In this document: in pieces, positions 13,399 to 31,811 of the stretch
How positions within the stretch are numbered: position 1 is the first letter of the stretch
How the letters are laid out: each line of letters opens with the position of its first letter
Position numbers and translations under genes: made by a program
Notes under the pieces: generated by a model
What the model was told of the DNA's origin: nothing
The model's database searches: none
The model's input: only the letters and a program-made list of their open reading frames with translations
Assembly (NCBI GenBank): GCA_002431965.1
Contig: DJEW01000011.1
Span: forward strand, 96,854 to 128,853
Length of the DNA stretch: 32,000 bases
Origin: Clostridiales bacterium UBA5888
GTDB lineage: Bacteria; Bacillota; Clostridia; Oscillospirales; Oscillospiraceae
Direction: 5' to 3'

Positions 13399-13525
13399 GC
13401 GCAAAAAACTTCATGCGGGAACACTGCGCCGCAAAAATGCGCAAATGCCGGTGCATGAAGTTTCTGTGCATCATTTCTTATTATTTTGCTATGCTTTTGC
13501 ACAGCAAAAATATGGCATCATGCGT

Positions 13526-13864
13526 TCAAAGGCATGGGAGATTTGTGCCGGACTGGTGAGCGAGACGGCGGATATAGGAGGCGAGCGCTTCCTCGGACGG
13601 GAAATGCGCAAGCTTGCCGGGGCTGGGGTGCAGCACAACGTTCAGCGCCTCTCCGCATGCCTGACGCTCCATATATTCCACGGGCATCTCCGTGTAAAAA
13701 TGCTCTGACGCGATATGGCGCAGCTCATGGCGCAAAACCTCCCCGCGCTTTACCTCGCTCAAAAGCGCGTTGATGTACACGCTGAAGCTGCCGTCAGAGT
13801 TTGGAACGGTAACACCCTCGACCTTTATCGGCAGCTCAATGAGCCGGACAAAATAATCAGTCAT
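13526..13864 (-). CDS. ImmA/IrrE-family zinc metalloprotease (anti-repressor protease)
   Basis: HELRH (HExxH) motif in the context EVLRHELRHIASEHF. It is small (112 aa). Its ATG overlaps the 3' end of the upstream XRE gene by 8 nt, the classic repressor-ImmA pairing. The start is moved from 13879 to the ATG at 13864. Confidence 0.8.
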   Translation of the reverse strand: MTDYFVRLIELPIKVEGVTVPNSDGSFSVYINALLSEVKRGEVLRHELRHIASEHFYTEMPVEYMERQACGEALNVVLHPSPGKLAHFPSEEALASYIRRLAHQSGTNLPCL

Positions 13865-14201
13865 TGTGAAGCGCCTCAATGATCTTTACGGCGCGGCGCA
13901 CATCGTCCGGCGTGGCATCCCTGGCGAGCTTGAAGAGCATTTTCATATCCTCGCGGCTGCGCAGAGCCTCCAGAAGCTCTGCCAGCTCCGCGTCTGCGGC
14001 GGTCTGCGTGGAGGTGAGCGTGTTCATATCGACGCCGAAAAACTCCGAAAAAACGCGGAGTGTATCAATATCCGGCTCACGCTTGCCGGTCTCATACATT
14101 CCGATGGCGCTGCGCGACAGCCCGGTGCCGTCGGCAAGCTGCTGCTGCGACAGCCCCGCCTTGCGGCGCAGATGTGTCAGAGTATCGCTGAAATGAGACA
14201 T
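13857..14201 (-). CDS. XRE-family HTH repressor (CI-like)
   Basis: HTH_3 motif LRRKAGLSQQQLADGTGLSRSAIGMYETGKREP. The start is set at the ATG at 14201 with a GGAGG SD (14211-14215, minus strand). It is divergent from the structural operon. Confidence 0.85.
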   Translation of the reverse strand: MSHFSDTLTHLRRKAGLSQQQLADGTGLSRSAIGMYETGKREPDIDTLRVFSEFFGVDMNTLTSTQTAADAELAELLEALRSREDMKMLFKLARDATPDDVRRAVKIIEALHND

Positions 14202-14242
14202 ATGCCTAATCCTCCACGGTGTCACAACATACTTATGCCACG

Positions 14243-14271
14243 AATATATCACATTACGTGATAATTGTAAA
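14243..14271 (-). promoter_or_regulatory. Leftward promoter of the repressor-ImmA operon
   Basis: On the minus strand: TTTACA (14271-14266), 17-nt spacer, TATATT (14248-14243). The spacer is filled by operator O1. Confidence 0.55.
14248..14262. promoter_or_regulatory. Operator O1 (ATCAC-N5-GTGAT)
   Basis: ATCACATTACGTGAT has perfect 5-bp inverted arms. Its reverse complement matches O3 at 13 of the 14 central positions. Confidence 0.55.
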
Positions 14272-14306
14272 GAAAAACTTTTTTAAGAAACCGCGAGACG
14301 TGGGTA

Positions 14307-14335
14307 TTGACTTATACAACAGACAATGGTATACT
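14307..14335 (+). promoter_or_regulatory. Rightward promoter driving the packaging/structural operon
   Basis: TTGACT (14307-14312), 17-nt spacer ending in TGG (an extended -10 TGn), TATACT (14330-14335). Confidence 0.65.
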
Positions 14336-14342
14336 CCGAAAT

Positions 14343-14357
14343 GTCACAGGGCGTGAC
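14343..14357. promoter_or_regulatory. Operator O2 (GTCAC-N5-GTGAC) over the predicted transcription start
   Basis: GTCACAGGGCGTGAC begins 8 nt after the -10 hexamer. Confidence 0.55.
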
Positions 14358-14376
14358 ACAAAGAGCAGAGAGAAAA

Positions 14377-14412
14377 CCGGACGCGGACGCACTCCGCGCC
14401 GGTGGATTTTTT
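14377..14412 (+). terminator. Terminator-like GC hairpin plus T6 in the leader of the rightward transcript
   Basis: CCGGaCGCGGA-cgcac-TCCGCGCCGG (10 bp, one bulge), then TGGA and TTTTTT (14407-14412). The 4-nt gap before the U-tract makes it non-canonical. Confidence 0.4.
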
Positions 14413-14423
14413 GCACCTGTATA

Positions 14424-14438
14424 GTCACGTAACGTGAC
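14424..14438. promoter_or_regulatory. Operator O3 (GTCAC-N5-GTGAC)
   Basis: GTCACGTAACGTGAC lies downstream of the leader hairpin and 27 nt upstream of the first small ORF. Confidence 0.5.
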
Positions 14439-14464
14439 ACAGAATCAAGCGGGCGGAGGTTGCA

Positions 14465-14644
14465 TTGATCGGTTTGCGCAGCGCCGGATACATACGCACG
14501 GCGGAGATATTCGGCTATCCCGTGGGGGAAGAGAGCGAAGAGCTGTGCTGCGGCGAAAATCCAATGCTGCCGTGCTGGCTGTGGAGCGGCGAGCCCGGGA
14601 AAACGGAGGACGGCGGCAATGGGGAGACATTTTGTGAGCTATGA
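14465..14644 (+). CDS. Small hypothetical protein (59 aa, Cys/Trp-rich), not in the supplied ORF track
   Basis: TTG start lies 5 nt after GGAGG (14455-14459). Translation is LIGLRSAGYIRTAEIFGYPVGEESEELCCGENPMLPCWLWSGEPGKTEDGGNGETFCEL. Third codon positions are strongly G/C-biased, like the real genes here. The exact start is uncertain. Confidence 0.45.
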   Translation: MIGLRSAGYIRTAEIFGYPVGEESEELCCGENPMLPCWLWSGEPGKTEDGGNGETFCEL

Positions 14645-14825
14645 GGCGCAGTGCCCATTTTACAGGGCGGAGGACAGAAACAAAATCTACTGCGAGGGGG
14701 TGGAGAAGGGCAGCAGCCTGCACAACGCCTTTGCCGGCAGCGCGGCTTCATATAAGGAGCGCTACTGCTGCGCGCGGTGGGAGGACTGCCTGATCGCAAA
14801 GATGCTGTGGAGCAAGTACGATTGA
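14619..14825 (+). CDS. Small Cys-rich hypothetical protein (68 aa)
   Basis: ATG lies 9 nt after GGAGG (14605-14609). It has five Cys (CPFY, YCEG, YCC, DC) and no family that I can name. Confidence 0.55.
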   Translation: MGRHFVSYEAQCPFYRAEDRNKIYCEGVEKGSSLHNAFAGSAASYKERYCCARWEDCLIAKMLWSKYD

Positions 14826-14864
14826 CGGAAGGGAGGGAGCACAGCGGGGAGCTTTCCCCGGGAA

Positions 14865-15143
14865 ATGAAGAGAATGCAGAGCAACAGTGAAAAAGAGACA
14901 AAGGAGAATGCGCGCTGCCGGCGGTTTATGGACATGACGGATGCCGCGGCGGAGCTGATACAAAGCACGATAAGCGCCGCCGCGCCCGACGATCCCAAGT
15001 CGCTGCGCGCGATCACCGGGGCGCTGAAGGATCTGAAAGAGCTGATGGACGATCCGCCGGGCGCGGCAAAGGACGGCGGGAACATCGTGATACGTATAGA
15101 GGGCGATGTGCCGGACGCACCCGAGCTGCCGGAAGCGCCGTAA
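14865..15143 (+). CDS. Hypothetical protein upstream of the large terminase (positional candidate for a small terminase subunit)
   Basis: 92 aa, acidic, with the helical segment SLRAITGALKDLKELM. Only its position immediately 5' of terL supports the role, and no HTH is recognised. The SD is weak and alternative ATGs exist (14874, 14925). Confidence 0.45.
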   Translation: MKRMQSNSEKETKENARCRRFMDMTDAAAELIQSTISAAAPDDPKSLRAITGALKDLKELMDDPPGAAKDGGNIVIRIEGDVPDAPELPEAP

Positions 15144-15152
15144 AGCGCCCTG

Positions 15153-16568
15153 ATGCCGTACATAGATATACCCGCACCGAGCGCAAAGCAGCGGCAGTTT
15201 TTTGCCGACGGGCACAAATACGTTGCCTACGGCGGTGCGCGCGGCGGCGGGAAGAGCTGGGCGGTGCGCGTGAACGCACTGCTGACGGCGGCACGATACC
15301 CCGGCGTGACGCAGCTTATCATCCGCCGCAGCTACCCGGAGCTGTACGCCAACCATATAAAGCCGTTTCTGCGCCTGCTGCCAAAGGGCAGCTATGCCTA
15401 CAACGACACTCGCAAGGAGATAACCCTCCCCAACGGCAGCCGTATAATCTTCCGCTACTGCGCGAATGACACGGATCTATTGAATTTTCAGGGGACGGAG
15501 TGCGACGTGATGTACATTGACGAGGCGACGCAGATCACGGAGGAGCAGTTCCGTGTGCTCTCCGCATGTGTGCGCGGCGCGGACAACGGTATGCCGAAGC
15601 GCTGCTATCTCACGTGCAATCCCGGCGGGGTCGGACACGCATGGGTAAAAAGGCTTTTTATCGACCGTATCTATAAGAGCGGCGAGCGGGCGGAGGAGTA
15701 CAGCTTTATTCAGGCAAAGGTTCACGACAACCGCGCGCTCATGCGCGCGCAGCCGGACTATATCCGCCAGCTTGAGGCGCTGCCGCCGAAGCTGCGCGCG
15801 GCATGGCTGGACGGATCATGGGACGTACACATGGGGCAGTTTTTCGAGGAATTCCGCAATCTGCCGGAGCATTACGCCGACAGAAGATGGACGCACGTGA
15901 TAGAGCCGTTCGAGATACCGGCGGACTGGCGCGTTTACCGTTCGTTCGACTGGGGGTATCACAGACCCTTTTCATGCGGCTGGTGGGCGGTGGACTACGA
16001 CGGGGTGGCGTACAGGGTGCTGGAAATGTACGGCTGCACCGAAACGCCGAACGAGGGCGTGCGCTGGACGCCGGACAGAGTGTTCGCGGAGCTGGCGCGC
16101 ACCGAGCGCGAGCACCGCTGGCTGCGCGGGCGGCAGATAACCGGTGTTGCCGATCCTGCGATATGGGACGGCTCGACCGGAGAGAGCATTGCCGACTGCG
16201 CCGCGCGCCACGGCATATATTTTTCGCGCGGCGATCACGCGCGCATACCGGGATGGATGCAGCTGCACTACCGCCTGACGTTCGACGAAAACGGCTATGC
16301 GATGATGTACGTCTTCAAAAACTGCGCCGCATTTATCCGCACGCTGCCGCTGCTGCAATATGACGCGCAGCGCGTGGAGGATCTGGACAGCGACGGCGAG
16401 GATCATATCGCCGACGAGACGCGGTATTTTCTCATGTCGCGCCCGATAAAGCCGCGTTCAGGCGAAAAAGAGACCGGGCGCGGCGCGCTGGAGCTGCTGC
16501 TTGATATACCGGGAGGCGCGCTCGGCGCGAAGATCCCGATAAAAAGAATGGAGATTCTGAATGAGTGA
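15153..16568 (+). CDS. Terminase large subunit
   Basis: Walker A GGARGGGKSW, Walker B DVMYIDEAT, coupling motif LTCNPGG and a C-terminal RNaseH-like nuclease region with DSDGEDHIADETRY. Confidence 0.9.
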   Translation: MPYIDIPAPSAKQRQFFADGHKYVAYGGARGGGKSWAVRVNALLTAARYPGVTQLIIRRSYPELYANHIKPFLRLLPKGSYAYNDTRKEITLPNGSRIIFRYCANDTDLLNFQGTECDVMYIDEATQITEEQFRVLSACVRGADNGMPKRCYLTCNPGGVGHAWVKRLFIDRIYKSGERAEEYSFIQAKVHDNRALMRAQPDYIRQLEALPPKLRAAWLDGSWDVHMGQFFEEFRNLPEHYADRRWTHVIEPFEIPADWRVYRSFDWGYHRPFSCGWWAVDYDGVAYRVLEMYGCTETPNEGVRWTPDRVFAELARTEREHRWLRGRQITGVADPAIWDGSTGESIADCAARHGIYFSRGDHARIPGWMQLHYRLTFDENGYAMMYVFKNCAAFIRTLPLLQYDAQRVEDLDSDGEDHIADETRYFLMSRPIKPRSGEKETGRGALELLLDIPGGALGAKIPIKRMEILNE

Positions 16569-18384
16569 CAAAATTGAAAGTGCCATCCGCCCCGCAGAGG
16601 ATGCGCCGGACGCCGCGCCGCGCGCCATAGGGCGCGACGAGATACGGAACGCTTATGCCACGCTTTTGAAATACAAGGCCGGAAAGGCAAATCTTGAACG
16701 GCGCATCGTGGATAATCAGCAGTGGTACAAGCTGCGGCAGTGGGAATGCCTGCGCCGGGCGAAGGCTAAAGAGCAGATAGAGCCCGCGAGCGCATGGCTG
16801 TTCAACGCCATTGCCAACAAGCATGCCGATGCGATGGACGCCTTTCCCTCCGCGGCGATACTCCCGCGCGAGCAGGGAGACGTTGCCGAGGCGGAGATGC
16901 TGACGGCGGTGATACCGGTGGTGCTGGACGAGTGCGACTTTGAAAGCGTGTATTCCGGCGTGATGGACGACAAGCTCATTGCGGGCACGGGCGTGTACGG
17001 CGTGTTCTGGGATGCGGAAAAGCTCAACGGACTGGGAGACGTGGACATTGTGCAGACGGACGTCATCAACCTTTTCTGGGAGAGCGGCGTGACCGACATA
17101 CAGCACAGCCGCAATCTTTTCTACGTGAGCCTGAGAGACAACGACCGGCTGGAGGAGGAATACCCCGCCGTGCGCGGGAAGCTTGGCGGGGCGGTGCTGG
17201 ACGTGGCGAAATACGTATATGACGACAGCGTGGACACCGCAGGCAAGAGCGTAGTGGTGGACTGGTACTACAAAAAGCGCGTCGGGCGGCGCACGGTGCT
17301 GCACTACTGCAAGTTCATTGCCGGACAGGACGAGCCGCTGTACGCCACGGAGAACGACACCGCCCCGGTTACGGACGGCATGGGCGGCGTTATCCGCCCG
17401 GCGCCGGCGGAGACTGGGTGGTACGACCACGGGCTGTATCCGTTCGTATTTGATCCGCTGTTTCGCACAAAGGGCACGCCGTGCGGCTTCGGATATGTCG
17501 ATGTGGGCAAGAACACGCAGGAGTACATTGACCGCGGCGATCAGGCGATAATGCAGAACATGCTCTTCAACTGCAAGCCGCGCCATTTCATCCGCAACGA
17601 CGGCAGCGTGAACGAGGCGGAGTACGCAGATCTTACAAAGGATTTTGTGCATGTGGACGGCGCGCTTGGGCAGGACAGCATCCTTCCCGTGCGCGGCAGC
17701 AGCCTTGACGGAATATACGTTACCGTCATCAACAACAAGATAGACGAGCTCAAGGAGACGACGGGCAACCGCGACGTATCCTCCGGCGGAACGACCGGCG
17801 GCGCGACTGCCGCCGCGGCGATCGCCGCAATGCAGGAGGCGGGCAGCAAGCTCTCGCGCGACAGCAGCAAGGCGGCATACCGCGCGTATAAAAAGCTTGT
17901 GCTGATGGTGATAGAGCTTATCCGCCAGTTTTATGACGTGCCGCGATATTTCCGCATTATGGGCGAGCGCGGCGGCATGAAATTCATAAGCTGCTCGAAC
18001 GCCGGGCTGAGATTGCAGAGCCAGGGCGAGCTGACGGGTCTGGACATGGGCTGGCGGCTGCCGGTATTCGATGTGAACGTCACGCCGGTGAAGTCCTCGC
18101 CTTATTCAAGGCTGAGCCAGAACGAGCTGGCGCTGCAGTTCTATGCGGCGGGCTTTTTCGACCCGGCGCGCGCGGAGGCGGCGCTGGCGTGCCTTGACAT
18201 GATGGACTTTGAACGCAAGGACTTTGTCGCGGCGAAGATCGCCGAGAATGCCGCGCGCGCCCACGCACAGACAGCAGCAGTGCCTGCGCCCGCAGCAGGC
18301 GGCGCCGCTCTGCGCCGCGCGGGGGAGGCAAGCGCAACGGTGAATGCGAGAAAAAACACGGCGCAGAGCATCCAGCCGGAATGA
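16561..18384 (+). CDS. Portal protein
   Basis: 607 aa, overlapping terL by 8 nt, in the canonical position between terminase and scaffold/capsid. The N-terminal region KANLERRIVDNQQWYKLRQWE resembles portal proteins as I remember them. Confidence 0.75.
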   Translation: MSDKIESAIRPAEDAPDAAPRAIGRDEIRNAYATLLKYKAGKANLERRIVDNQQWYKLRQWECLRRAKAKEQIEPASAWLFNAIANKHADAMDAFPSAAILPREQGDVAEAEMLTAVIPVVLDECDFESVYSGVMDDKLIAGTGVYGVFWDAEKLNGLGDVDIVQTDVINLFWESGVTDIQHSRNLFYVSLRDNDRLEEEYPAVRGKLGGAVLDVAKYVYDDSVDTAGKSVVVDWYYKKRVGRRTVLHYCKFIAGQDEPLYATENDTAPVTDGMGGVIRPAPAETGWYDHGLYPFVFDPLFRTKGTPCGFGYVDVGKNTQEYIDRGDQAIMQNMLFNCKPRHFIRNDGSVNEAEYADLTKDFVHVDGALGQDSILPVRGSSLDGIYVTVINNKIDELKETTGNRDVSSGGTTGGATAAAAIAAMQEAGSKLSRDSSKAAYRAYKKLVLMVIELIRQFYDVPRYFRIMGERGGMKFISCSNAGLRLQSQGELTGLDMGWRLPVFDVNVTPVKSSPYSRLSQNELALQFYAAGFFDPARAEAALACLDMMDFERKDFVAAKIAENAARAHAQTAAVPAPAAGGAALRRAGEASATVNARKNTAQSIQPE

Positions 18385-18458
18385 GGCGGATGCCGGACAT
18401 TACAGAATATGCCGTTGCCGGGAGAGAATGCCCCGGCGGCAGAGAGGAGAGATAGACA

Positions 18459-19097
18459 ATGAATAAAGAAACAAACGACAGTATCCAGCTTTTCGCCGCC
18501 GGGGACGGCAGCGCCGGCACGGCGGAGCATCCGGTCTGTAAAGAATCCGCAGGCGAAAAACCCGCACCCGAGGCGGAGCGCGCCGCAGCGGAAAAATACA
18601 GATCCCTTGCAAGCGCAATAGCGGCGCTGGAAAAACGCTACGGAACGGCTCCCGGCGACGCGCAGGCGCTTGCGCGAGCGGTGGAGGAGGACGATCCCGG
18701 GGCGAGGGCGGAGGCCGGGGAGGCAAAAAGAAGAGAAAAAGCCTCCCGCCTTTATAGCATGTGGCTTTCGCAGACGGCGGATCTGCGGGAGAGCTGCCCC
18801 GGCTTCAATCTCACACATGAGCTGAAAAACGCGGACTTCCGCGAGCTGCTGCGCTCGGGCGCGAGCGTGCGCGCCGCGTATGAGCTTGTCAACCGCGACG
18901 CCATCATGCGTGCGGCGGCGCGCGATATGGAGGAGCGACTGGTGCGCAGCATCCTCTCCGGCGCTGACCGCCCGCGCGAGGGCGGGCTGACGAGCCAGAG
19001 CGCCGCCGTTGTGAAAAGCGACGTTGCGGGCATGTCCAGATCCGCCCGGCGCGAGATCATCCGCCGTGTCCAGCGCGGCGAAAAAATTTCATTTTGA
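18459..19097 (+). CDS. Putative scaffolding protein
   Basis: 212 aa, Ala/Glu/Arg-rich and predicted helical, located between the portal and major capsid genes. No prohead protease gene is present. Confidence 0.55.
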   Translation: MNKETNDSIQLFAAGDGSAGTAEHPVCKESAGEKPAPEAERAAAEKYRSLASAIAALEKRYGTAPGDAQALARAVEEDDPGARAEAGEAKRREKASRLYSMWLSQTADLRESCPGFNLTHELKNADFRELLRSGASVRAAYELVNRDAIMRAAARDMEERLVRSILSGADRPREGGLTSQSAAVVKSDVAGMSRSARREIIRRVQRGEKISF

Positions 19098-19110
19098 ATA
19101 GGAGACACAT

Positions 19111-20337
19111 ATGAGCAATGACAAAAACACCGTCCAGACCACCGGCATGACCGGGCTGTCGGCGGAGATGAAAACCTTTTACGATATGACGCTCATTGAC
19201 GAGGCGCAGGCGAATCTCGTCCATGACCAGTTCGGGCAGAAGCGCCCCATACCGCCCAACGGCGGCAAGATAATCGAATTCCGCAAGTTCGCACCGCTTG
19301 CCAAGGCGACAACGCCGCTCACCGAGGGCGTGACCCCGGACGGCAAGCAGCTGTCCGTCAGCACCGTCAGCGCTGCGGTGAGCCAGTACGGCGATTATAT
19401 CACCCAGTCGGATATGCTGGAGCTGACGGCGCTTGACAACACCATTCTCGAATCGGCAAAGCTGCTGGGGCGTCAGGCGGGCGCTACGCTCGACACCGTT
19501 GTGCGCAACGTCATGCACAGCGGCACGAATGTAATCTATGCCGAAAAGTCCTCCGCCTCAGGCGTGACAGAGGTGAAAAGCCGCAGTGTGCTCGACAGTG
19601 ACTGCACCATAACCGTGGAGCTCATCCAGCGCGCCGTGGCAAAGCTCCGCGCGCAGAATGCGCCCACCATCGACGGCAAGTATGTCGGCATCATCCATCC
19701 CTACGTCGCCTATGACCTCATGCGCGACAGCGAGTGGGTAGATGCGCACAAGTACGCCCAGCCGGAGAATCTCTACGAAGGCGAGATAGGCGAGCTTGCG
19801 GGGGTGCGCTTTGTGCAGACGACCGAGGCGAAGATCTACGCGGGCGAGGATCTCGCCTCCGACAGCCGCACGCTAACCGTCAACAACGCCTCCGGCTACA
19901 CGGGCAGCGTGACCTCCGTGAAGTTCGACGGCGGCACGGTCGAGCCTGACGCGCTCGCCGGACGCTATATCCTCATCAACGGTGTGCGCGCGAAGGTCAC
20001 CGCAAACACCGCCGACACCATCACCGTGGAGAGCTGCGACTTCGGCACGGTTGCCGACAACGCCGTCATCTATCCCGGCGAGGGCGGCAAGGACGGGCTT
20101 GCCGTGTTCGGCACGCTCATCCTCGGCGACGGCGCTTACGGCGTGACTGAAGTGACCGGCGGCGGTCTTGAGATAATTGTGAAGCAGCGCGGCTCGTCCG
20201 GCGCGGCAGACCCGCTCGACCAGCGCTCCAGCGTCGGCTGGAAGGCGATAAAGACCGCGGAGATGCTCATAGAAAACTATCTTGTGCGCATCGAGAGCGT
20301 TTCAAAGCGCTTTTCCGCGAGCGCCAAGGCAAACTGA
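19111..20337 (+). CDS. Major capsid protein (HK97 fold; resembles the N4 gp56-type family)
   Basis: 408 aa with a strong SD. The N-terminal pattern FYDMTLIDEAQANLVHDQFGQKRPIPPNGGKIIEFRKF...PLTEGVTPDG...VSQYGDYITQSD matches my memory of that capsid family. Confidence 0.85.
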   Translation: MSNDKNTVQTTGMTGLSAEMKTFYDMTLIDEAQANLVHDQFGQKRPIPPNGGKIIEFRKFAPLAKATTPLTEGVTPDGKQLSVSTVSAAVSQYGDYITQSDMLELTALDNTILESAKLLGRQAGATLDTVVRNVMHSGTNVIYAEKSSASGVTEVKSRSVLDSDCTITVELIQRAVAKLRAQNAPTIDGKYVGIIHPYVAYDLMRDSEWVDAHKYAQPENLYEGEIGELAGVRFVQTTEAKIYAGEDLASDSRTLTVNNASGYTGSVTSVKFDGGTVEPDALAGRYILINGVRAKVTANTADTITVESCDFGTVADNAVIYPGEGGKDGLAVFGTLILGDGAYGVTEVTGGGLEIIVKQRGSSGAADPLDQRSSVGWKAIKTAEMLIENYLVRIESVSKRFSASAKAN

Positions 20338-20361
20338 CGCGGCGCGAAAGGAGAGAGAGTA

Positions 20362-20589
20362 ATGGCAGCGAAAAAGAACACAAACGGCGAAAAGCTGGTG
20401 CGTATCAGGCTTCCCAAGGAGCGGCGCGAGCAGGAGGACGTATTTGTCGGCGTGAATGAGCGCACATGGCTCATCCGGCGCGGCGTTGAGGTGGAAGTGC
20501 CCGAATGCGTGGCGGAGGTGCTGGAAAACCGCGAGATGATGCTCGAAACCATCATGGAGTTTGAGAGCGCGGCACGCAGGGCGGAGTGA
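20362..20589 (+). CDS. Small conserved-looking head-region protein (75 aa), function unknown
   Basis: AAGGAGAG SD, good codon bias, positioned directly after the capsid gene. Confidence 0.6.
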   Translation: MAAKKNTNGEKLVRIRLPKERREQEDVFVGVNERTWLIRRGVEVEVPECVAEVLENREMMLETIMEFESAARRAE

Positions 20590-20593
20590 CGCA

Positions 20594-20965: not shown

Positions 20966-20983
20966 AGGAGGAGGGGGAACGCC

Positions 20984-23562: not shown

Positions 23563-23565
23563 ATT

Positions 23566-25161: not shown

Positions 25162-25171
25162 GGAGACGGCT

Positions 25172-27349
25172 ATGGGCTTTTTTTCATCCTTGCAAAAGCG
25201 TGTGCGCAGCGCCTCCGGCTGGAGCGCGTGGAGCGCGCTGGGCGGCGCGGATTATGTCGCCGAAAGCGGGAAGTGCGTGGTATACCGCGTGCAGGCAAAC
25301 TACGCCGCCGGTGATAGCGGCATCGCCGCGCTTTCGATAGGCACAAATTTCGTCAATCCGCTGACCTCCGGCACGGCAGCGGCGGCAGCGTGCTATCTTT
25401 ACGGCTCTGACCCAACGGCGGGCGGCGACGCCGCCGTGACGAGCCCGCCCGGCGGATATATTGCCTCCGCGAGCGCCGAGTTTTCCGCAAGCAACGTGGG
25501 AAGCTATATTCTTTTCGCCTTTCCGGAGATTTCGGGAACGCCGGAGGCGCTGTACTTCTGGTTTACATCGTCCGTCGGCACTGACGCTTACGGCAGCAAT
25601 CAGATATACCACTATGCCACCGGCAACTGGAACGCCGCGCTGGAAACCGGCACGCGCACCCCGGCAATATACGGCGGGCTGACCGGCGATCCGGGCGGCA
25701 GCGGCGGTACTGCCGGCGTTGACCGCTTCACGATAAAGGACTGCGGCACGAGGATGGATATGCCGCAGTCGCCGTGGACGGGCACGATGTCGATGGGCGT
25801 GGGCGAGGTCGGGCGTATACGCTTCAGCTTTGACTTCTCCGTGCAGACGGAGGTATCCGTCACGAGCAGCGGCGGCGCGGCGGCGCTGACGCGCCTTTAC
25901 ATCTCGACAGATCCCGATATTGACGAATCGACCGGACATCCTGTCAGCACCGTGCTGCAATTCGATGCGGACGGCTCTCTCTCTGCGGCGCGCCTTGCGA
26001 GAGGAAAGACGTATTATCTTTTTGCCCTCTTTGACGGCGGGATAAACGCGGGCAGCGTGTCGTTCGCATTCACGCCTGGCGCGCAATGCTGGTATGAGGG
26101 CGACCGCGCGGCGTATACGCGCCTTGCCGCCGATCCGGCGCACTCCGTGACGCTTGGCGCTGGACGCTACAGCGTGATAAGCCTGACGTTCGCAAATTCC
26201 GGCACGGCGCGGTTTTACACCGGCAGCACCGCGATCGAAAGACCGTTTTTCGTCTATGGCTACCTCAGTGAGGAATATAATTTTGACAATTCCGACGGCG
26301 TGTGCGACCCATGCCTGAAAATGGGGCACGGCAGCGTGGAAACAGGCGATCCGCCTGATTATGACATGGAGTATGCCGTCACGGCGGGCAGAACATATTA
26401 TCTTTTTACGCGAAGCTGCTCGGCGGACGTGCCGGTTTCTGCGGCGGTGCATATCGTTCCGCCCGCCGCGCCGTCGGGATACGTCCTCGTCTCAAAGCCC
26501 GCCGCGACGGATGCGGCGGCAGACATCTCATATGACGAGGAGTGCACGCGCTACACCGTGCGTGAGCAGAAAGTGAGCTTTCGCTACCGCGGCACGGCGT
26601 GCATCCGCGCGGCGTCGCCCGCCGGAGGCGGCACAGCGGAGCTGAGAGCATACGTGAGCGCAGCGCACGGCGTTGACCTTGCGACCGGCACGCCTACGGC
26701 ACAGGTGCTCGCACAGACGGCGGGAGTTTCGACTGCGGCGGATGTGACTTTCTTTGCCGAGGAGGGGCGGGAATACTGGGTGTACATCACGGCGGAGGAG
26801 CTGCTGTACGCACCGTCCGCCAGACTCGGCATATACATCCAGAGCCCGCCCGTGCGGCGGTACGCCGTGACGGAGACGGCAGAATATGCAAGCATTGCCG
26901 CGGAAACGGAGCACCCGGCCTCTCCGGGAGAGAGCGGAATAGTACGGCTGGAGCTGACATTTAAGAAGAGCGGCGCCGTGCTGTTTTCAAGCACCGACGC
27001 CGCGGGGACGCACACGCGCCTTGCGGGCGCGCTCAGCCGCGGGACGGATATTTTCCCTGCCACAGGAGACCCCGTTTCCCCTGCGCTCGCCTCGGGTACA
27101 GGGACGCAGACGCACTATTCCTTTGCCGCGCTCGTTGAGGCAGGAGTGACATATTATTTTTTCAGCCGGGATATGTGGCTTTACGCTGCGCCCGCTTTCA
27201 CCATACACATAACGCCCGTGCCCGGCGCGATGCATATTCTCGCCGGCGGAGAAGAGAAAAACGCCCTGCCGTATATATACGTGTCGGGCGCGTGGCGCAC
27301 TGCCGCGCCCATGCTGTATTCTGCCGGCAGGTGGCGCACGGGAATATAG
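25172..27349 (+). CDS. Putative tail fibre / receptor-binding protein with four tandem ~126-aa beta-sandwich-like modules
   Basis: 725 aa with a GAGGAG SD. The module-end motif recurs with a regular period: TYYLF at 26009, TYYLF at 26393, EYWVY at 26771, TYYFF at 27149. Confidence 0.65.
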   Translation: MGFFSSLQKRVRSASGWSAWSALGGADYVAESGKCVVYRVQANYAAGDSGIAALSIGTNFVNPLTSGTAAAAACYLYGSDPTAGGDAAVTSPPGGYIASASAEFSASNVGSYILFAFPEISGTPEALYFWFTSSVGTDAYGSNQIYHYATGNWNAALETGTRTPAIYGGLTGDPGGSGGTAGVDRFTIKDCGTRMDMPQSPWTGTMSMGVGEVGRIRFSFDFSVQTEVSVTSSGGAAALTRLYISTDPDIDESTGHPVSTVLQFDADGSLSAARLARGKTYYLFALFDGGINAGSVSFAFTPGAQCWYEGDRAAYTRLAADPAHSVTLGAGRYSVISLTFANSGTARFYTGSTAIERPFFVYGYLSEEYNFDNSDGVCDPCLKMGHGSVETGDPPDYDMEYAVTAGRTYYLFTRSCSADVPVSAAVHIVPPAAPSGYVLVSKPAATDAAADISYDEECTRYTVREQKVSFRYRGTACIRAASPAGGGTAELRAYVSAAHGVDLATGTPTAQVLAQTAGVSTAADVTFFAEEGREYWVYITAEELLYAPSARLGIYIQSPPVRRYAVTETAEYASIAAETEHPASPGESGIVRLELTFKKSGAVLFSSTDAAGTHTRLAGALSRGTDIFPATGDPVSPALASGTGTQTHYSFAALVEAGVTYYFFSRDMWLYAAPAFTIHITPVPGAMHILAGGEEKNALPYIYVSGAWRTAAPMLYSAGRWRTGI
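25700..27225 (+). repeat. Protein-level tandem repeat: four divergent modules of 126-128 codons (boundaries approximate)
   Basis: Motif spacing is 384, 378 and 378 nt. Each module follows the pattern 'FxxxGTA-F-(S/T)...L-AY(L/V)S...TG-P...G-TYY(L/F)F...-I-I-P'. Confidence 0.6.
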
Positions 27350-27380
27350 AGAAACACACATCGAGAGGGAGGAAAGAAAA

Positions 27381-28388
27381 TTGACGGACGAAGAGAAGAG
27401 GCTTGAACGCGAGAAGGAAGCGGCGTATGGATCCGCCGCGCGCCCGGAGTATGCCGGAAGCCATGAAAAGGAGCTGAGCGACGCCTATGATGCGCTGACA
27501 AAGCGCGGAGAGTTCAGCTATGACCTGGGAAGCGACGCGCTTTATAAGCACTACCGCGACGATTATGTACGCCGGGGCAGACTTGCCATGCGCGACACGG
27601 CGGGTCAGGCATCGGCGCTGACGGGCGGTTATGCGTCCAGCTACGCCGAGGGCGTGGGGCAGCAGAGGTACGACGAATACCTCCAGCAGCTCGGGGCGAT
27701 CGTGCCGGAGCTGTACTCGATCGCGTACAGCCGCTATCAGGACGAGGGCGACGCCCTGCGTGAGCGCTATGACCTTGCCGAGGGCCTGCGCGACAGAGAG
27801 TATAAGGCCTACTCCGACGCGCTCGACGATTATAATAACGCCCAGCAGCTTGCCTATGAACGTGAGCAGGAAGAGCTGGAACGCGAGAGCAGGGAGCGCG
27901 AGAGCGAATACCAGCGCCGCCAGAGCGAAGCGGCGGCGCGCGCCAAGTACGGCGATTTCGGCGGGTATGCCGCGCTCTACGGCGACGAGACGGCAGAGCA
28001 GATGAAAAACTACTGGATAGCTTCCAATCCCGGCGCGGCTTACGGCATGGGGCTGATCACTGCCGAGCGTTATTTTGCCATGACCGGAGGGACGGCATCC
28101 GGCTCGGGTGCAAGCACAAAAAGCTCAGCTTCACGCGGCTCGTATTACCCGTCCACCGCGCCCGACGGCAGGGATGCTTCCGTCGTGCAGCGCGAGCTGA
28201 GAAACAAGGGGTACAACATCGCAGTGGACGGCGCCTGGGGCGAGAGAAGCCAGAGAGCGTGGGACAAGGAGTACGGCAGCGGAGGGAGCGGCACAGCCGC
28301 GCGCTCCAAAAGCAGCGGGAAATCAACCGGTACGCGCACCGGCAGCGCTACGGCGGGCACATCAGGCAGAGCAAAGGCGCTGCGCTGA
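27381..28388 (+). CDS. Coiled-coil structural protein with a C-terminal peptidoglycan-binding-like domain (candidate internal/ejection or wall-anchoring protein)
   Basis: 335 aa; TTG start 8 nt after GGGAGG. It has a Tyr/Glu/Arg-rich helical region. The segment RDASVVQRELRNKGYNIAVDGAWGERSQRAWDKEYG resembles PG_binding_1. The tail is Ser/Gly/Thr/Arg-rich and low in complexity. Confidence 0.6.
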   Translation: MTDEEKRLEREKEAAYGSAARPEYAGSHEKELSDAYDALTKRGEFSYDLGSDALYKHYRDDYVRRGRLAMRDTAGQASALTGGYASSYAEGVGQQRYDEYLQQLGAIVPELYSIAYSRYQDEGDALRERYDLAEGLRDREYKAYSDALDDYNNAQQLAYEREQEELERESRERESEYQRRQSEAAARAKYGDFGGYAALYGDETAEQMKNYWIASNPGAAYGMGLITAERYFAMTGGTASGSGASTKSSASRGSYYPSTAPDGRDASVVQRELRNKGYNIAVDGAWGERSQRAWDKEYGSGGSGTAARSKSSGKSTGTRTGSATAGTSGRAKALR

Positions 28389-28400
28389 CAGGACAGGCAC

Positions 28401-29660
28401 ATGAGAAAAAGCACGTATTATATTGAGCTGGACATAGAGCGCCGCGGGGCGCAGGGCTGCATGTCCGTCCGGCAGGGCGAGAGCGGGCGGCGGCTTGTTG
28501 CGGCGCTGATGAGCGGGGGAAGACCGTATGACCCGGGAGAGGACTGCTATGCCGTGCTCGCCGGGACGAAGAGCGACGGCACGACGCTCTTCAACGGCTG
28601 CGCCATCTCGCACGGGCGCGTGACATATGAGCTGACCGCGCAGACGACTGCGGCGCTCGGGCGCGTTGAGTGCGAGGTGAGAGTATACTCCGCCGCAGGA
28701 GAGCTCATCATATCGCCGGCGTTCACGCTCATGGTTTTTCAGCCAAAGGTCGAAGAGAGCGGCATAACCTCCGCTGCGGAGGTCACGGCGCTCACGGAGC
28801 TCATCGCGGATGCGCGCGAGGCGATAGAGACGAGCCGCAGCGGCGGAGTTGAAGCGGCAGAGGCACATGTGGACGCGCTCAGCGGCACGCCGGCGGTGAG
28901 CGTTCAGCTTGGCGAAAAGAGCGGGAAAAAGACGCTGAGCTTTCTCTTCTCCGGACTCAGAGGAGAAAAGGGAGAGCAGGGGGCGCGCGGGGAAAAGGGC
29001 GATGCCGGGCAGCCCGGCACGCCCGGCGAGAAAGGCAACCCGGGGGATAGAGGCGAGAAAGGCGATCCCGGCGCGCCGGGCGAAAAAGGCGAGCGCGGCG
29101 ATAGGGGTGAAAAGGGCGAGCGCGGGGAAAAGGGCGATGCGTTCACCGTACTTGGCTTTTTTGACAGCCTTGAGGCGCTCACAGCTGCGGTGAGCGCGCC
29201 CGCCGCGGGCGAGGCATACGGCGTGGGCGCGGCAAAGCCCTATGACATATATATTTACGACGCGGCGCGGGCGGAGTGGGTGAACAACGGCCCGCTTCAG
29301 GGCGCGAAGGGAGACAAGGGCGAAAAAGGCGACGCATTCACGTTCGCGGATTTCACGACCGAGCAGCTCGCGTCTCTGCGCGGCGCGGACGGCGCGCCGG
29401 GCGAAAAGGGCGAGAAGGGCGATCCCGGGCAGCCCGGAGCGGACGGCGCACCCGGCGAGAAAGGCGAGCGCGGCGAAAAGGGTGAAAAGGGCGATCCCGG
29501 CGCTGCGGGCGCGGACGGCGCGCCGGGGGAAAAGGGCGAACGCGGCGAGAACGGCTATACCCCGGTGCGCGGCGTGGATTACTGCACCGCTGCCGACAAA
29601 GCGGAGCTTGTCTCCGCCGTGCTCGCCGCCCTGCCGGATGGAGATGTGCAGAGCTATTAG
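28401..29660 (+). CDS. Tail fibre with a BppU-like N-terminal domain and collagen-like Gly-X-Y tracts
   Basis: The N-terminal 115 aa ([19 protein letters not shown]...LAGTKSDGT...[23 protein letters not shown]...ISPAFTLMV) fit the BppU_N pattern. Three G-X-Y blocks are rich in GEKGD/GERG. Confidence 0.8.
28953..29138 (+). repeat. Collagen-like G-X-Y tract 1 (about 20 triplets)
   Basis: [62 protein letters not shown]. The DNA is made of reiterated GGCGA(A/G)AA(A/G)GGCGA units. Confidence 0.9.
29382..29555 (+). repeat. Collagen-like G-X-Y tract 3 (about 19 triplets); a short tract 2 lies at 29301-29333
   Basis: [58 protein letters not shown]. It shares near-identical GGCGCGCCGGG(C/G)GAAAAGGGCGA segments with tract 1. 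Confidence 0.9.
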
Positions 29661-29698
29661 CATGACGGGTCGTGCCAACAGCCATAAGGAGGATTTTT

Positions 29699-30592
29699 AT
29701 GAGCATAATCACAACGGACAGCGCACGTTACAGCGCCATTGCCGCCGCGATCCGCGCGAAAAACGGAGAGACGGAGCAGTACACCCCTGCCGAGATGGCG
29801 GCGAAGATAGCCGCCATCACCACGGGCGCGGAGCTGGATTACGCCGTCGTCTGCGCGGATGAGCGTCCCGCAGCGGCCGTGAAGAACACCCTGTGGGTGG
29901 AGGAGGGTAACACCACGAGCAACGTGTACTTCTCATGGAATGCACCGCAGACGCCCGCGGCAAATACACTCTGGGTGGAGCAGGGAATGCCGTCCATGAC
30001 GCCGTTTGACCCGATAAAAAACGGAGGCATCACCGTGTATCCCCGCCGCGTCAAGCAGTACAAGGCGTCTGCAAATAAATGGACGCTGCGCCGCGCGCAG
30101 CTTTACGACGGCGCGGCGTGGACGGATCTGAGCACGCCCGCGTACAGCTATGGCGACGAATGCAGCGACCTGTCCGGCGGGTGGAAGGTGGAAGCGGCGT
30201 CGTGGGAAGGCGCGGGTTCGGGCATCATAGCAAGTATAACAAAAAATGCCGACCATATTTTTATCACCGGGCAGAGCTACAGTGTGAAAAACGGCAGCGG
30301 ATACCGCATGAGAAACATCACACCGATCGACCTGACGGATGTGGAGAGAATTGGCATATGCGTGAGCGAGCTGACCGGGCAGGGCATATTCGGCGTGCTG
30401 CCGCAGGGGGAAACGTACATGGATCTGAGCATATCTCAGACCGTGACCGGCGCGGACGGCACGACACCTGCGGAGACGAGCATGGATGTGAGCGGAATGA
30501 CAGGACTGCACTATATCTGCCTGCTCATGCGGTGTACAGAGGCAAAGGTGATGACGCTGAAGGCGAAGGTGCACAGATGCTGGATATACTGA
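29699..30592 (+). CDS. Putative tail fibre / receptor-binding accessory protein
   Basis: 297 aa. The start is set at the ATG at 29699 after an AAGGAGG SD. The N-terminal motif TDSARYSAIAAAIRAKNGETEQYTPAEMAAKI is one I associate with Clostridia prophage fibre-region proteins. The C-terminus is beta-rich. Confidence 0.55.
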   Translation: MSIITTDSARYSAIAAAIRAKNGETEQYTPAEMAAKIAAITTGAELDYAVVCADERPAAAVKNTLWVEEGNTTSNVYFSWNAPQTPAANTLWVEQGMPSMTPFDPIKNGGITVYPRRVKQYKASANKWTLRRAQLYDGAAWTDLSTPAYSYGDECSDLSGGWKVEAASWEGAGSGIIASITKNADHIFITGQSYSVKNGSGYRMRNITPIDLTDVERIGICVSELTGQGIFGVLPQGETYMDLSISQTVTGADGTTPAETSMDVSGMTGLHYICLLMRCTEAKVMTLKAKVHRCWIY

Positions 30593-31275
30593 AGCAGCGG
30601 ACGATAGACGCCGCCGTGGAGACGGCGCGCGCCATCGCTGCTGACAGCGCGCACGGATATGACCAGCAAAACCGCTGGGGACCGGATTTTGATTGCAGCA
30701 GTCTTGTCATTCATGCGTGGCGCGAGGCGGGTGTGCCTTTGCAGTGCACGTATACCGGCGATATGCGCGGGGACATGCTGCGCCGCGGCTTTGCCGATGT
30801 TACAGAGAGCATCGGGTGCGAGAGCGGGGCGGGGCTTGAACGCGGGGATGTGCTTTTGAACTGCGCGCGGCACACGGCGCTCTATATCGGCGGCGGACGC
30901 CTTGTCCACGCGAGCGCCGACGAGCGCGGCGCGGCGCGCGGCGGCGTGACGGGCGATCAGACGGGGTGCGAGATCTGCGAAAGGGCGTATTTCAACTATC
31001 CGTGGGACTTTGTGCTGCGCTATATGGGAGGCGGTAACGCCGCGCCGGGCGTGCGAAAGCTCCGCTACGACGGGGGAAGCGCATATATGAGCGGCGAGGA
31101 TGTATACGCCGCGCAGCATCTCCTGCGCGCCGCGGGCTATATGCCGGCGCCCGACGGCGAGTACGGCGGCGAGACGCGCGCGGCGGTGGAGGCATTCCAG
31201 AAATGCCGCGGCCTTGCGCCGGACGGAATATGCGGCGCGGCGACATGGGCGGCGCTTACGGAGGTCAGGGCATGA
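30577..31275 (+). CDS. Endolysin: papain-fold (NlpC/P60- or Amidase_5-like) cell-wall hydrolase with a C-terminal PG_binding_1 domain
   Basis: Candidate catalytic Cys in FDCSSLVIHAW and His in ARHTALYIGGG, plus GDQTGCEI...WDFVLRY. The C-terminus reads GEDVYAAQHLLRAAGYMPAPDGEYGGETRAAVEAFQKCRGLAPDGICGAATWAAL. The start is moved from the track's 30079 to the ATG at 30577. Confidence 0.8.
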   Translation: MLDILKQRTIDAAVETARAIAADSAHGYDQQNRWGPDFDCSSLVIHAWREAGVPLQCTYTGDMRGDMLRRGFADVTESIGCESGAGLERGDVLLNCARHTALYIGGGRLVHASADERGAARGGVTGDQTGCEICERAYFNYPWDFVLRYMGGGNAAPGVRKLRYDGGSAYMSGEDVYAAQHLLRAAGYMPAPDGEYGGETRAAVEAFQKCRGLAPDGICGAATWAALTEVRA

Positions 31276-31529
31276 GCGAGGCGGTGATAGTGGCGCTGCT
31301 GGGCTTTGCAGGAACGCTTACGGGCGCGTACCTGGCAAATAAAAAGACAAGCGCCGTTATAGCCTACAGGCTGGAGGCGCTTGAGAAAAAGGTGGACAGG
31401 CATAACAGCGTCGTCGAGCGCACTTACGAGCTGGAAAAGCGCGCGGCGCTCACGGCGGAGCAAATAAAGGTCGCCAACCACCGCATAGACGATCTTGAAC
31501 ATATTTCAGCGGAAAAGGAGAAACAATAA
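31272..31529 (+). CDS. XhlA-like lysis-associated membrane protein (one N-terminal TM plus coiled coil)
   Basis: 85 aa with ATGA coupling to the endolysin. TM VIVALLGFAGTLTGAYLA is followed by the helical LEALEKKVDRHNSVVERTYELEKRAALTAEQIKVANHRIDDLE. Confidence 0.55.
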   Translation: MSEAVIVALLGFAGTLTGAYLANKKTSAVIAYRLEALEKKVDRHNSVVERTYELEKRAALTAEQIKVANHRIDDLEHISAEKEKQ

Positions 31530-31726
31530 TGAAAATGGACTGGATAAACATACTTGAACGCGCGGCATGGACATTCGCGGAGGGATTTCTTGTGGCGCTG
31601 CCTGCCGCCTCCGCGATAGGCGCGGACGCCGCAGCGTGGAAAGCGGCGCTCATGGGCGCAGCCATGGCGGGGCTGAGCGCACTGAAAACCTTCGCCATCG
31701 AGCTTATCCGCACGATGGACGTATAA
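31529..31726 (+). CDS. Putative holin (two hydrophobic helices, 65 aa)
   Basis: TAATG coupling and a GGAG SD. The segment ERAAWTFAEGFLVALPAA...AALMGAAMAGLSALKTFAIELIR resembles small LL-H/r1t-type holins. It is the last gene of the operon. Confidence 0.6.
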   Translation: MKMDWINILERAAWTFAEGFLVALPAASAIGADAAAWKAALMGAAMAGLSALKTFAIELIRTMDV

Positions 31727-31750
31727 GAACATATCAAATAAGAATATAGC

Positions 31751-31780
31751 AAAAAACGGGCTCGACGAGCCCGTTTTTTT
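31751..31780. terminator. Bidirectional intrinsic terminator at the right end of the element
   Basis: AAAAAACGGGCTC-gac-GAGCCCGTTTTTTT: an 8-bp GC stem flanked by A6 and T7. Confidence 0.85.
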
Positions 31781-31811
31781 GCTATATAAGTAACTATAAC
31801 TGACGCTGACC

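Follow-up and report, generated by a model that had tools for sequence, protein, structure and literature searches.

The element described here lies in a 32,000-nt stretch of the genome of Clostridiales bacterium UBA5888 (GCA_002431965.1, contig DJEW01000011.1, positions 96,854-128,853), which we call the window, and it occupies window positions 13399-31790. We consider it likely that this locus is a domesticated descendant of a family of ~40 kb temperate podophages, inherited vertically as a chromosomal operon, and that it is gene transfer agent (GTA)-like with a regulation resembling that of PBSX of Bacillus subtilis. Relative to its ancestor, it would have lost the integration, early, and replication genes together with the DNA-recognition domain of the small terminase (TerS). 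A first-pass annotation had already proposed a domesticated short-tailed particle, and gene content, boundaries, TerS, synteny, synonymous divergence (dS), and the ratio of nonsynonymous to synonymous divergence (dN/dS) all support that proposal. Its remark that no such case was known has to be withdrawn: the GTA-like element of Faecalibacterium prausnitzii (FpGTA) is podovirus-like and resides in a high-GC Clostridia host (PMC12946183). The P22-like portal and the N4-type major capsid protein (MCP) indicate a short-tailed virion, and we infer that its function would be to package DNA rather than to kill.

The element measures 18.4 kb. A repressor pair on the minus strand faces one string of plus-strand genes (14465-31726 on the map of open reading frames [ORFs]), the junctions of which are all tight or overlapping. 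The ORF map and the family searches agree with the first-pass annotation that this string is an uninterrupted operon running from packaging through head and tail to lysis. Its surroundings are as follows:

9653-10777: sbcD, left host gene
10774-13398: sbcC, host gene directly left of the element
13399-13525: left junction spacer of 127 bp, from the sbcC stop to the stop of the HExxH gene of the repressor pair, without an att-like repeat
31751-31779: bidirectional intrinsic terminator with a 13-bp stem between A and T runs; right boundary, closing the operon, with host genes beyond

The 127-bp gap (sbcC stop at 13398, stop of the 112-aa HExxH gene at 13526) and the strong terminator had both been described before, and both are as described; the opposite-strand gene to the right of the terminator encodes a membrane protein with a hydrophobic C-terminus. 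All ORFs of the element were searched against Pfam, PHROGs, and NCBIfam, and no recombinase, replication, tape measure, tube, or sheath family was matched, in line with what had been judged from the letters. No direct repeat of at least 10 nt is common to both junctions, and shared 9-mers occur at chance level.

The earlier hypothesis hinged on there being no integrase or replication module just beyond the window. Longer contigs of the same species that reach the junctions carry no such contiguous module, and host genes lie there instead: sbcDC on the left in all of them, and on the right a 229-aa membrane protein, AraC, three EamA, an amidohydrolase, a sigma factor, and the ATP synthase operon. 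More than 20 independent metagenome contigs of this species (99.2-100% nucleotide identity, up to 167 kb) encode an MCP and a holin with exactly the same amino acid sequences. An sbcC-based metagenome scan together with an exact-protein look-up returned no empty site, only occupied sites or distant sbcC genes, which suggests that the element is fixed within the species. IMG/VR lists the window locus as a provirus of 18,999 bp.

The edges can also be seen elsewhere. In Candidatus Limivicinus (L194; loci in our comparison are cited by L numbers), both ends fall on one 260-kb contig and the element, computed from coordinates, is ~19.5 kb long, with a transglutaminase gene on the left and AAA_28, RimM, TrmD, KsgA, and PPDK to the right of the holin. 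In a third species, the holin is followed by the host genes CstA, DeoR, PMM, and Fe-ADH. Of the features of a functional temperate prophage (an integrase or transposase, att sites, a contiguous replication or early module), none is found here; what is found are genes for a particle, its packaging, and its release without genes for integration, excision, or replication, as in GTA-like elements.

Three short ORFs open the plus-strand string. They had been listed simply as three tiny ORFs, a description that suits the second, is doubtful for the first, and misses the nature of the third:

14465-14644, plus strand: s1, a doubtful 59-aa ORF overlapping the leader and the start of s2; no family match in Pfam or PHROGs
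14619-14825, plus strand: s2, a conserved 68-aa five-cysteine protein, function unassigned
14865-15143, plus strand: s3, a truncated small terminase of 92 aa, comprising the core and C-terminal part, with the N-terminal helix-turn-helix (HTH) missing

The gene call for s1 is present in most, not all, samples, and its dN/dS is 1.1 in comparison with the nearest species (L187) and 0.27-0.30 in the other comparisons. For s2, dN/dS is 0.10-0.17, a sign of strong purifying selection; it has no match in Pfam, PHROGs, or NCBIfam, is also found directly upstream of TerS in the complete ~40 kb phage relatives, and could be a late regulator or a packaging accessory.

The identity of s3 was established by profile. 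A profile of the relatives' TerS matches it at profile positions 58-116 of 162 (E 4e-10). In the complete phages, the TerS upstream of the large terminase (TerL) is 155-175 aa long, its N-terminal ~55 residues being an HTH (HTH_psq, 1e-5 to 1e-3), and full-length TerS proteins of the relatives match PHROG TerS families via this N-terminus. We split the profile into N and C parts and searched all plus-strand frames up to 2.5 kb upstream of TerL at every locus. In the window, the N-domain is absent from the three plus-strand frames within this distance; every member of the window's clade with a detectable TerS has the C part only, and both parts are present on all ~40 kb viral contigs with this type of TerS. 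The homologues of s3 in the database are all short (35/35 are 75-130 aa). A small terminase without the N-terminal DNA-binding domain has been termed a "GTA-type TerS" (PMC6854486), and s3 is one of this kind.

The second line of evidence is inheritance. In seven species (the window, L187, L022, L025, L026, L027, and L194), the element adjoins an orthologous transglutaminase gene, with or without sbcDC in between, and transglutaminase identity across this series runs from 86% down to 57%, the latter in Limivicinus. The sbcDC genes stand between the two in the window (9653-13398), L187, and L026, are missing there in L022 (5396-7316), L025, and L027, and in Limivicinus (L194 2628-8568) sbcCD-like genes are found on the other side of the transglutaminase gene. 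Because the position of sbcDC varies, the junction is not a fixed attachment site. Divergence was estimated by the Nei-Gojobori method, and dS between the window and four other species was as follows:

Window vs L187: host flank (ABC permeases, GH77, transglutaminase, sbcD, sbcC) 0.40-0.60; element 0.28-0.60
Window vs L022: host flank 0.55-0.64; element 0.38-0.67
Window vs L026: host flank 0.81-1.56; element 0.76-1.73
Window vs L027: host flank 0.91-1.08; element 0.61-1.32

For every element gene but s1, dN/dS is 0.04-0.36 (0.06-0.23 for TerS, TerL, and portal; 0.19-0.31 for the fibre and a 297-aa gene), and no stop codons interrupt the orthologues of element genes in the species compared. The dS parity with the host flank and the low dN/dS show that element and chromosome have diverged together, with purifying selection acting on the element's regulators and its packaging, head, tail, and lysis genes. 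This pattern is the signature of a domesticated element; neither a remnant in decay nor a phage that had lately passed between these species would leave it. Vertical inheritance and long-term purifying selection, as in GTAs, are evident from synteny, dS parity, dN/dS, and the monophyly described below. The synteny check that had been suggested thus finds the element, without an integrase and with intact ORFs, across many species with dN/dS well below 1. The other outcome named in advance as fatal, that this copy is a recent deletion derivative of a full-length phage in a single strain, is ruled out by a clade that is old, species-rich, and devoid of the TerS DNA-binding domain.

Relatives were gathered through the portal, which yielded 477 stretches of GTDB species-representative genomes, and the window proteins were mapped onto the best 80 loci and 74 IMG/VR contigs. 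Almost all of these portal relatives come from metagenome-assembled genomes (MAGs) of gut Oscillospiraceae or Clostridia (humans, ruminants, birds); the window element's closest representative in GTDB carries the label Butyricicoccaceae. Among them are complete phages, namely about two dozen viral contigs of 36-45 kb and many MAG prophages. These uncultured ~36-45 kb phages (IMG/VR L103-L173; MAG prophages L036, L037, L047, L077, and others) carry a module homologous to and collinear with the window's: s2, TerS, TerL, portal, (Prp), scaffold, MCP, g75, g123, g583, g276, (g531), and g335. TerL identity to the window is 47-68%, and MCP identity reaches 78%. Unlike the window element, they keep the TerS HTH, and the genes immediately preceding their module, in the same orientation, encode a replisome organiser, SSB, ERF, a helicase, methylases, DUF1064, and a G39P-type loader. 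The window type of immA/xre occurs on none of the 74 viral contigs except the element itself, and INPHARED holds no cultured relatives, the matches there being unannotated faecal contigs. Accessory genes in the early regions of the phage relatives include a reverse transcriptase (RVT_1) beside a C5 methylase (L047 3051-4298) and a Tad2-like anti-Thoeris domain (L100 6259-6798).

The window's own clade consists of L021-L033, L041, L099, L187, L194, L195, and L177, with portal proteins 69-93% and MCPs 76-95% identical to those of the window. Its architecture is identical to the window's (HExxH gene, XRE, then s2, s3, and TerL onward) in at least 15 Oscillospiraceae/Butyricicoccaceae species representatives, and wherever the flank can be seen, the left neighbour of the HExxH gene is a regular host gene. 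In a neighbour-joining tree of TerL from 113 loci (65 with full TerS, 36 with truncated TerS, 12 with other or undetected TerS; without support values), this clade (16 species representatives plus the window) is monophyletic and HTH-less wherever TerS was detected. A second monophyletic clade of 11 species representatives, from high-GC MAGs (L050, L053, L058, L065, L067, L069-L072, L075, L080), also has a truncated TerS: host genes on the left, a 143-145-aa HELGH protein with XRE, a small Zn-ribbon-like ORF, and a 105-124-aa HTH-less TerS beside TerL. In L070 and L071 of this clade, a tRNA-like sequence adjoins the repressor module. Smaller truncated-TerS lineages are scattered among the complete phages, and at least two independent origins of the truncation are our suggestion.

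The regulatory end of the element has the following parts:

13526-13864, minus strand: ImmA-like mini metalloprotease, 112 aa, with an HELRH motif (phrog_87); candidate anti-repressor
13857-14201, minus strand: XRE-family repressor, 114 aa (HTH_3 6e-16; PHROG transcriptional repressor families)
14243-14439: switch region with divergent promoters, three palindromes, and a hairpin with a U-run, lying in the 230-bp intergenic region

The two genes overlap. Where the first-pass annotation spoke of a divergent XRE/ImmA pair, the XRE half stands on its HTH_3 match, and the ImmA label depends on the HELRH motif and a weak phrog_87 metalloprotease match (3.5e-3), the sole family match of this protein, with none in Pfam. 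The HExxH motif is conserved in all orthologues as HELRH or HELEH, dN/dS is 0.07-0.16 (0.04-0.10 for XRE), and at the same position sister lineages have HELGH proteins of 143-145 aa or a true Peptidase_M78. With moderate confidence, we take the 112-aa protein to be a reduced ImmA-type anti-repressor. In one abundant species, a RelB/YoeB-type toxin-antitoxin pair adjoins the HExxH gene (L195 8296-8559; L196 99-625), and next to that pair L195 has an Agr-like quorum-sensing cluster (AgrB, LytTR regulator, histidine kinase).

A promoter scan gave four sites against 0.9 expected, including two promoter-like sites with extended -10 boxes that point away from each other: P(xre), 14271 to 14243 (TTTACA-17-TATATT), and P(late), 14307-14335 (TTGACT-17-TATACT). 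The palindrome TCAC-N5-GTGA occurs at 14249, 14344, and 14425, its only three copies in the window against 0.28 expected; the first covers the xre promoter, the second follows closely on the -10 box of the operon promoter, and the third is 81 bp further along. Palindromes, -35/-10 boxes, and the 81-82 bp spacing between the second and third palindromes (O2-O3) are kept in 13 species. Between these two palindromes is a GC hairpin with a U-run (~14376-14412; -28.2 kcal/mol, z -5.5, single-sequence fold). The same kind of folds show a leader hairpin with different stem sequences in about 9 of 12 species, and RNAalifold returned no consensus for the leader, the stems not being alignable. Palindromes 2 and 3 also bracket a hairpin in L187, L022, L021, L024, L026, L027, L029, and L195. 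The hairpin may be a terminator/antitermination checkpoint for read-through between the late promoter and the first gene.

From these parts, a working cycle can be proposed. XRE would bind the three palindromic operators and thereby close the late promoter, until a stress signal switched on the HExxH partner, which would inactivate XRE in the way that ImmA inactivates ImmR. Transcription would then pass through the leader hairpin and continue, following the observed gene order of TerS, TerL, portal, capsid, tail, and lysis genes, as a single unit. The HTH-less TerS would recruit TerL to DNA without specificity for a packaging (pac) site; the heads would consequently take up host DNA, or would at least not favour the element, which can neither excise nor replicate. 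Holin and endolysin would finally release short-tailed particles.

The genes that would build, fill, and release these particles are listed below, with the matches on which their names are based:

15153-16568, plus strand: large terminase (Terminase_6N 3e-15; phrog_979 3e-46)
16561-18384, plus strand: portal, P22-like (PF16510 2e-25; phrog_156 5e-71)
18459-19097, plus strand: putative scaffold, 212 aa (position; phrog_13908 2e-30)
19111-20337, plus strand: major capsid protein, N4-gp56 family (TIGR04387 6e-77; phrog_1357 2e-87)
20362-20589, plus strand: g75, 75-aa virion-module protein (phrog_15239/phrog_12105), conserved across the phage family
20594-20965, plus strand: g123, 123-aa virion-module protein (phrog_15239/phrog_12105), likewise conserved
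20984-22735, plus strand: 583-aa virion protein (phrog_511 3e-57)
22732-25161, plus strand: 276-aa protein and 531-aa DUF859 tail protein (PF05895 1e-14; phrog_372 2e-30)
25172-27349, plus strand: g725, 725-aa hypervariable protein, candidate tail spike or receptor binder
27381-28388, plus strand: g335, 335-aa Glu/Lys/Ala-rich virion protein, conserved across the whole family
within 28401-30592, plus strand: BppU_N and collagen tail fibre, 419 aa (PF10651 1e-9, collagen 7e-21, phrog_10972)
29699-30592, plus strand: 297-aa protein, distal fibre or receptor-binding candidate (gene call)
30577-31275, plus strand: endolysin, 232 aa (ELLD 1e-22, PG_binding_1 2e-17, NlpC/P60 3e-6)
31272-31529, plus strand: XhlA-like membrane protein, 85 aa (sub-threshold XhlA match, 2.8e-5)
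31529-31726, plus strand: holin, 65 aa (phrog_443 1e-4)

Among the head genes, the scaffold has the highest dN/dS (0.30-0.36); among the matches listed in the homologue search with the MCP, identity is at least 85%. In the phage relatives, and in several members of the window's clade (L194 13657-14037; L195 13558-13920), the portal and scaffold genes are separated by a gene for a Prp-like cysteine protease (PF04327). It is absent from the window, L187, L022, L021, and L177, where the gap between portal and scaffold is 74 bp (18385-18458 in the window). The 583-aa protein is a candidate tail nozzle or internal virion protein, the nozzle label coming from gene order in comparison with FpGTA (RCH50846); sequence-profile searches of the PDB with this protein and the 531-aa protein gave no match. 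The 725-aa protein matches no family in Pfam or PHROGs and is 30-53% identical among clade members whose capsid proteins are 85-95% identical. Abundant homologues of g335 (P0075, P0108) have the genomic context of other lineages. Two blocks of 9-nt-periodic collagen-like (Gly-X-Y) repeats at 28961-29583, in the fibre gene, are the only sizeable internal repeats of the element, and the fibre is 416 instead of 419 aa long in L008, L012, and L015. At the lysis end, the endolysin had been read as a 398-aa ORF; it is in fact 232 aa long and preceded by the separate 297-aa gene. Endolysin and holin were otherwise correctly recognised, and the XhlA-like label falls below the Pfam cut-off (24.7 against 34.7 bits).

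How does this compare with known systems? Sequencing of intact capsid-packaged faecal DNA has shown GTA-like packaging to be prominent in Ruminococcaceae and Oscillospiraceae (PMC12946183; Nat Commun 2026;17:2046; preprint 2024), and Butyricicoccaceae DNA is reported to be strongly enriched in murine virus-like particles (VLPs; 2026 preprint). Operon I of FpGTA spans 10.5 kb with 10 ORFs, among them a TerS without a DNA-binding domain, TerL, portal, scaffold, and MCP; operon II, 125 kb away, spans 5.5 kb and encodes a fibre, a receptor-binding protein, holin, and endolysin. The particles have capsids of ~40 nm with 8.4-8.9 kb of host DNA, and the proteomics table lists a "Terminase-like family" TerL, a portal, a Prp protease, an "N4-gp56 family" MCP, a tail nozzle, an abundant "TolA" protein, and a BppU-like fibre. 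No regulator is described, and no cluster was found in the Oscillospiraceae and Gemmiger MAGs examined (all PMC12946183).

FpGTA and the window element are both podovirus-type, have gut Oscillospirales hosts and a TerS without a DNA-binding domain, and lack integrase and replication genes. Their annotations and gene order match, a comparison made on annotation and order only and not on sequence. The labels common to both are TerL (PF03237 in the FpGTA comparison), portal, N4-gp56 MCP, a nozzle-type protein, a Glu/Lys/Ala-rich "TolA-like" protein, a BppU-like fibre, receptor-binding proteins, holin, and endolysin, and the stretch from s3 to g531 in the window has 10 ORFs in 10.3 kb, beside the 10 ORFs in 10.5 kb of FpGTA operon I. 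The Prp-like protease occurs in FpGTA and in Limivicinus and other members of the window's clade, but not in the window lineage. FpGTA consists of two operons 125 kb apart, whereas the window element is one contiguous operon of 18.4 kb; and, unlike FpGTA as described, it has an XRE/HExxH switch with three operators. The hosts also differ, Faecalibacterium on one side and MAGs labelled Oscillospiraceae/Butyricicoccaceae on the other, and FpGTA particles and their host-DNA content have been shown experimentally, whereas the window element is known from its genes. Its membership in the FpGTA family, judged by this likeness, is a well-founded lead.

As a broader and tentative proposal, which we rate as possible rather than probable, the ~40 kb gut podophage family may have been domesticated repeatedly (at least two large and several small Oscillospirales clades), each lineage losing its early and replication genes and the TerS HTH and having an ImmA/XRE switch wired to the particle operon. 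Such single-locus elements, not generalised-transducing phages, would then be the source of much of the GTA-like VLP DNA from Oscillospiraceae/Butyricicoccaceae, taxa in which published searches turned up no gene clusters.

The likeness to PBSX is one of layout and regulation. Both elements are chromosomal and cannot propagate. PBSX has its xre and ImmA-like genes at one end and its XhlA, holin, and lysin genes at the other; in the window element, the XRE gene is clear, its HExxH partner is a candidate ImmA-like protein with no significant M78 match, and the XhlA-like protein beside holin and lysin scores below threshold. In PBSX a repressor controls the morphogenesis genes and host DNA is packaged non-specifically, and both would hold for the window element as well. 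PBSX is myovirus-type with sheath, tube, and tape measure, whereas none of these families was matched in the window element. PBSX uses a late sigma-like factor, and no gene for such a factor was recognised in the window element.

With RcGTA and other alphaproteobacterial GTAs, the element has in common vertical inheritance, purifying selection, the lack of integrase and replication genes, a TerS without the N-terminal DNA-binding domain (PMC6854486), and an expected lysis-dependent release. RcGTA, however, is siphovirus-type and multi-locus and is governed by the host regulators CtrA and GafA, whereas the window element is podovirus-type with one locus and a phage-type repressor pair, and their MCPs belong to unrelated lineages (HK97-type against N4-gp56-type). 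Two further identities were considered and rejected. A phi29-like protein-primed small podophage does not fit, as neither a DNA polymerase B nor a terminal protein family was matched and the portal is of the P22 type; a phage satellite (phage-inducible chromosomal island [PICI] or capsid-forming PICI [cf-PICI]) would have the opposite content, the element having a full structural and lysis set and no integrase or replication genes.

Three rival explanations deserve attention. The same operon might have been selected to kill or damage related strains in the manner of PBSX, with the packaged DNA incidental and undelivered. The layout, with XRE and its ImmA-like partner opening the locus and the lysin, XhlA-like, and holin genes closing it, resembles that of PBSX, and the receptor-binding end evolves fastest (the low identity of g725, and dN/dS of 0.19-0.31 for the fibre and the 297-aa gene), which is typical of strain-level targeting. 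Known phage-derived bacteriocins, however, kill with contractile or long flexible tails, and we know of no killing mechanism described for a short podovirus tail. TerS, TerL, and portal are under strong purifying selection, which a pure killer would not require, although PBSX keeps these genes too. The authors of the FpGTA study left this option open for their element (PMC12946183); for the present one we regard it as unlikely. Alternatively, the element could still be selfish and not yet domesticated, being moved, amplified, or packaged with outside help, for instance from a phage of the same family residing in the same host or from an integrase encoded at another site. The family's complete phages do abound in the same habitats, distant clade members differ in their left neighbour, and a tRNA-like sequence adjoins the repressor module in the second HTH-less clade. 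Of a mobile element one would expect younger or incongruent divergence, whereas dS equals that of neighbouring host genes in four species pairs and adjacency to the transglutaminase gene is kept down to 57% identity of the latter. The lack of att repeats at the junctions, the confinement of this immA/xre type to the element itself among viral contigs, and an HTH-less TerS, which argues against self-specific packaging, tell against it as well, and we find it quite improbable. An inert prophage remnant that has no selected function and has simply not yet decayed would likewise lack integration and replication genes and might show a few ORF breaks in single samples. Yet all of the roughly 20 genes have stayed whole across more than 15 species, with dS reaching values above 1 and dN/dS of only 0.04-0.36; promoters, operators, and operator spacing are conserved; and the clade is monophyletic and species-rich. 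Neutral decay would have ruined an 18 kb operon well before such divergence, and we consider this explanation very improbable indeed.

Several observations count against a domesticated, GTA-like element, our preferred reading. Particles, cargo, and head capacity are predicted here from genes, and the match with FpGTA is, as said, one of annotation and order. An integrase or replication module elsewhere in the genome may act in trans, and a truncated TerS can retain some DNA binding (PMC6854486). ORFs are broken in single samples: g725 in L009 (15545-17722, split into 254 and 465 aa) and the lysin in L178 (9122-9820, split into 142 and 80 aa); these variants, like the 416-aa fibre, could be assembly errors or non-producer "cheater" alleles. 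The left neighbours of distant clade members vary (PRTase, Sel1, MatE, CobU, GalT, RelBE), which genome rearrangement would explain and which past mobility would fit too. Finally, L184-186 have the repressor-next-to-terminase layout with a full-length TerS, and this layout alone is therefore not diagnostic. In these loci (L184 4765-7848, also L185 and L186), host genes (QueT and others) are followed by a 206-aa Peptidase_M78 and XRE, divergent from a 153-aa HTH-bearing TerS, TerL, and portal, and the head genes are rearranged, with a g335-like gene directly after Prp.

GTAs were long thought to be nearly confined to the Alphaproteobacteria. Long-read viromics of 2024-2026 has revealed prominent GTA-like packaging in gut Oscillospiraceae and Ruminococcaceae, with a gene cluster assigned only in Faecalibacterium, and the window locus is a concrete and complete single-operon candidate for other families of the order. 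A podovirus-like element of GTA-like kind is already known in FpGTA; what sets the window locus apart is its single-locus, switch-equipped architecture. The recognisable switch (repressor, protease-like partner, three operators, leader hairpin) makes the system experimentally tractable, loss of xre being expected to turn the operon on, and the source of GTA-like packaging in gut Clostridia other than Faecalibacterium becomes directly testable. Because the phage relatives are still extant, the steps of domestication can be read as a graded series: loss of early genes, of the TerS HTH, and of Prp, and splitting of the operon. If it is true that the particles transfer DNA, they would constitute a route of gene flow among abundant gut commensals.

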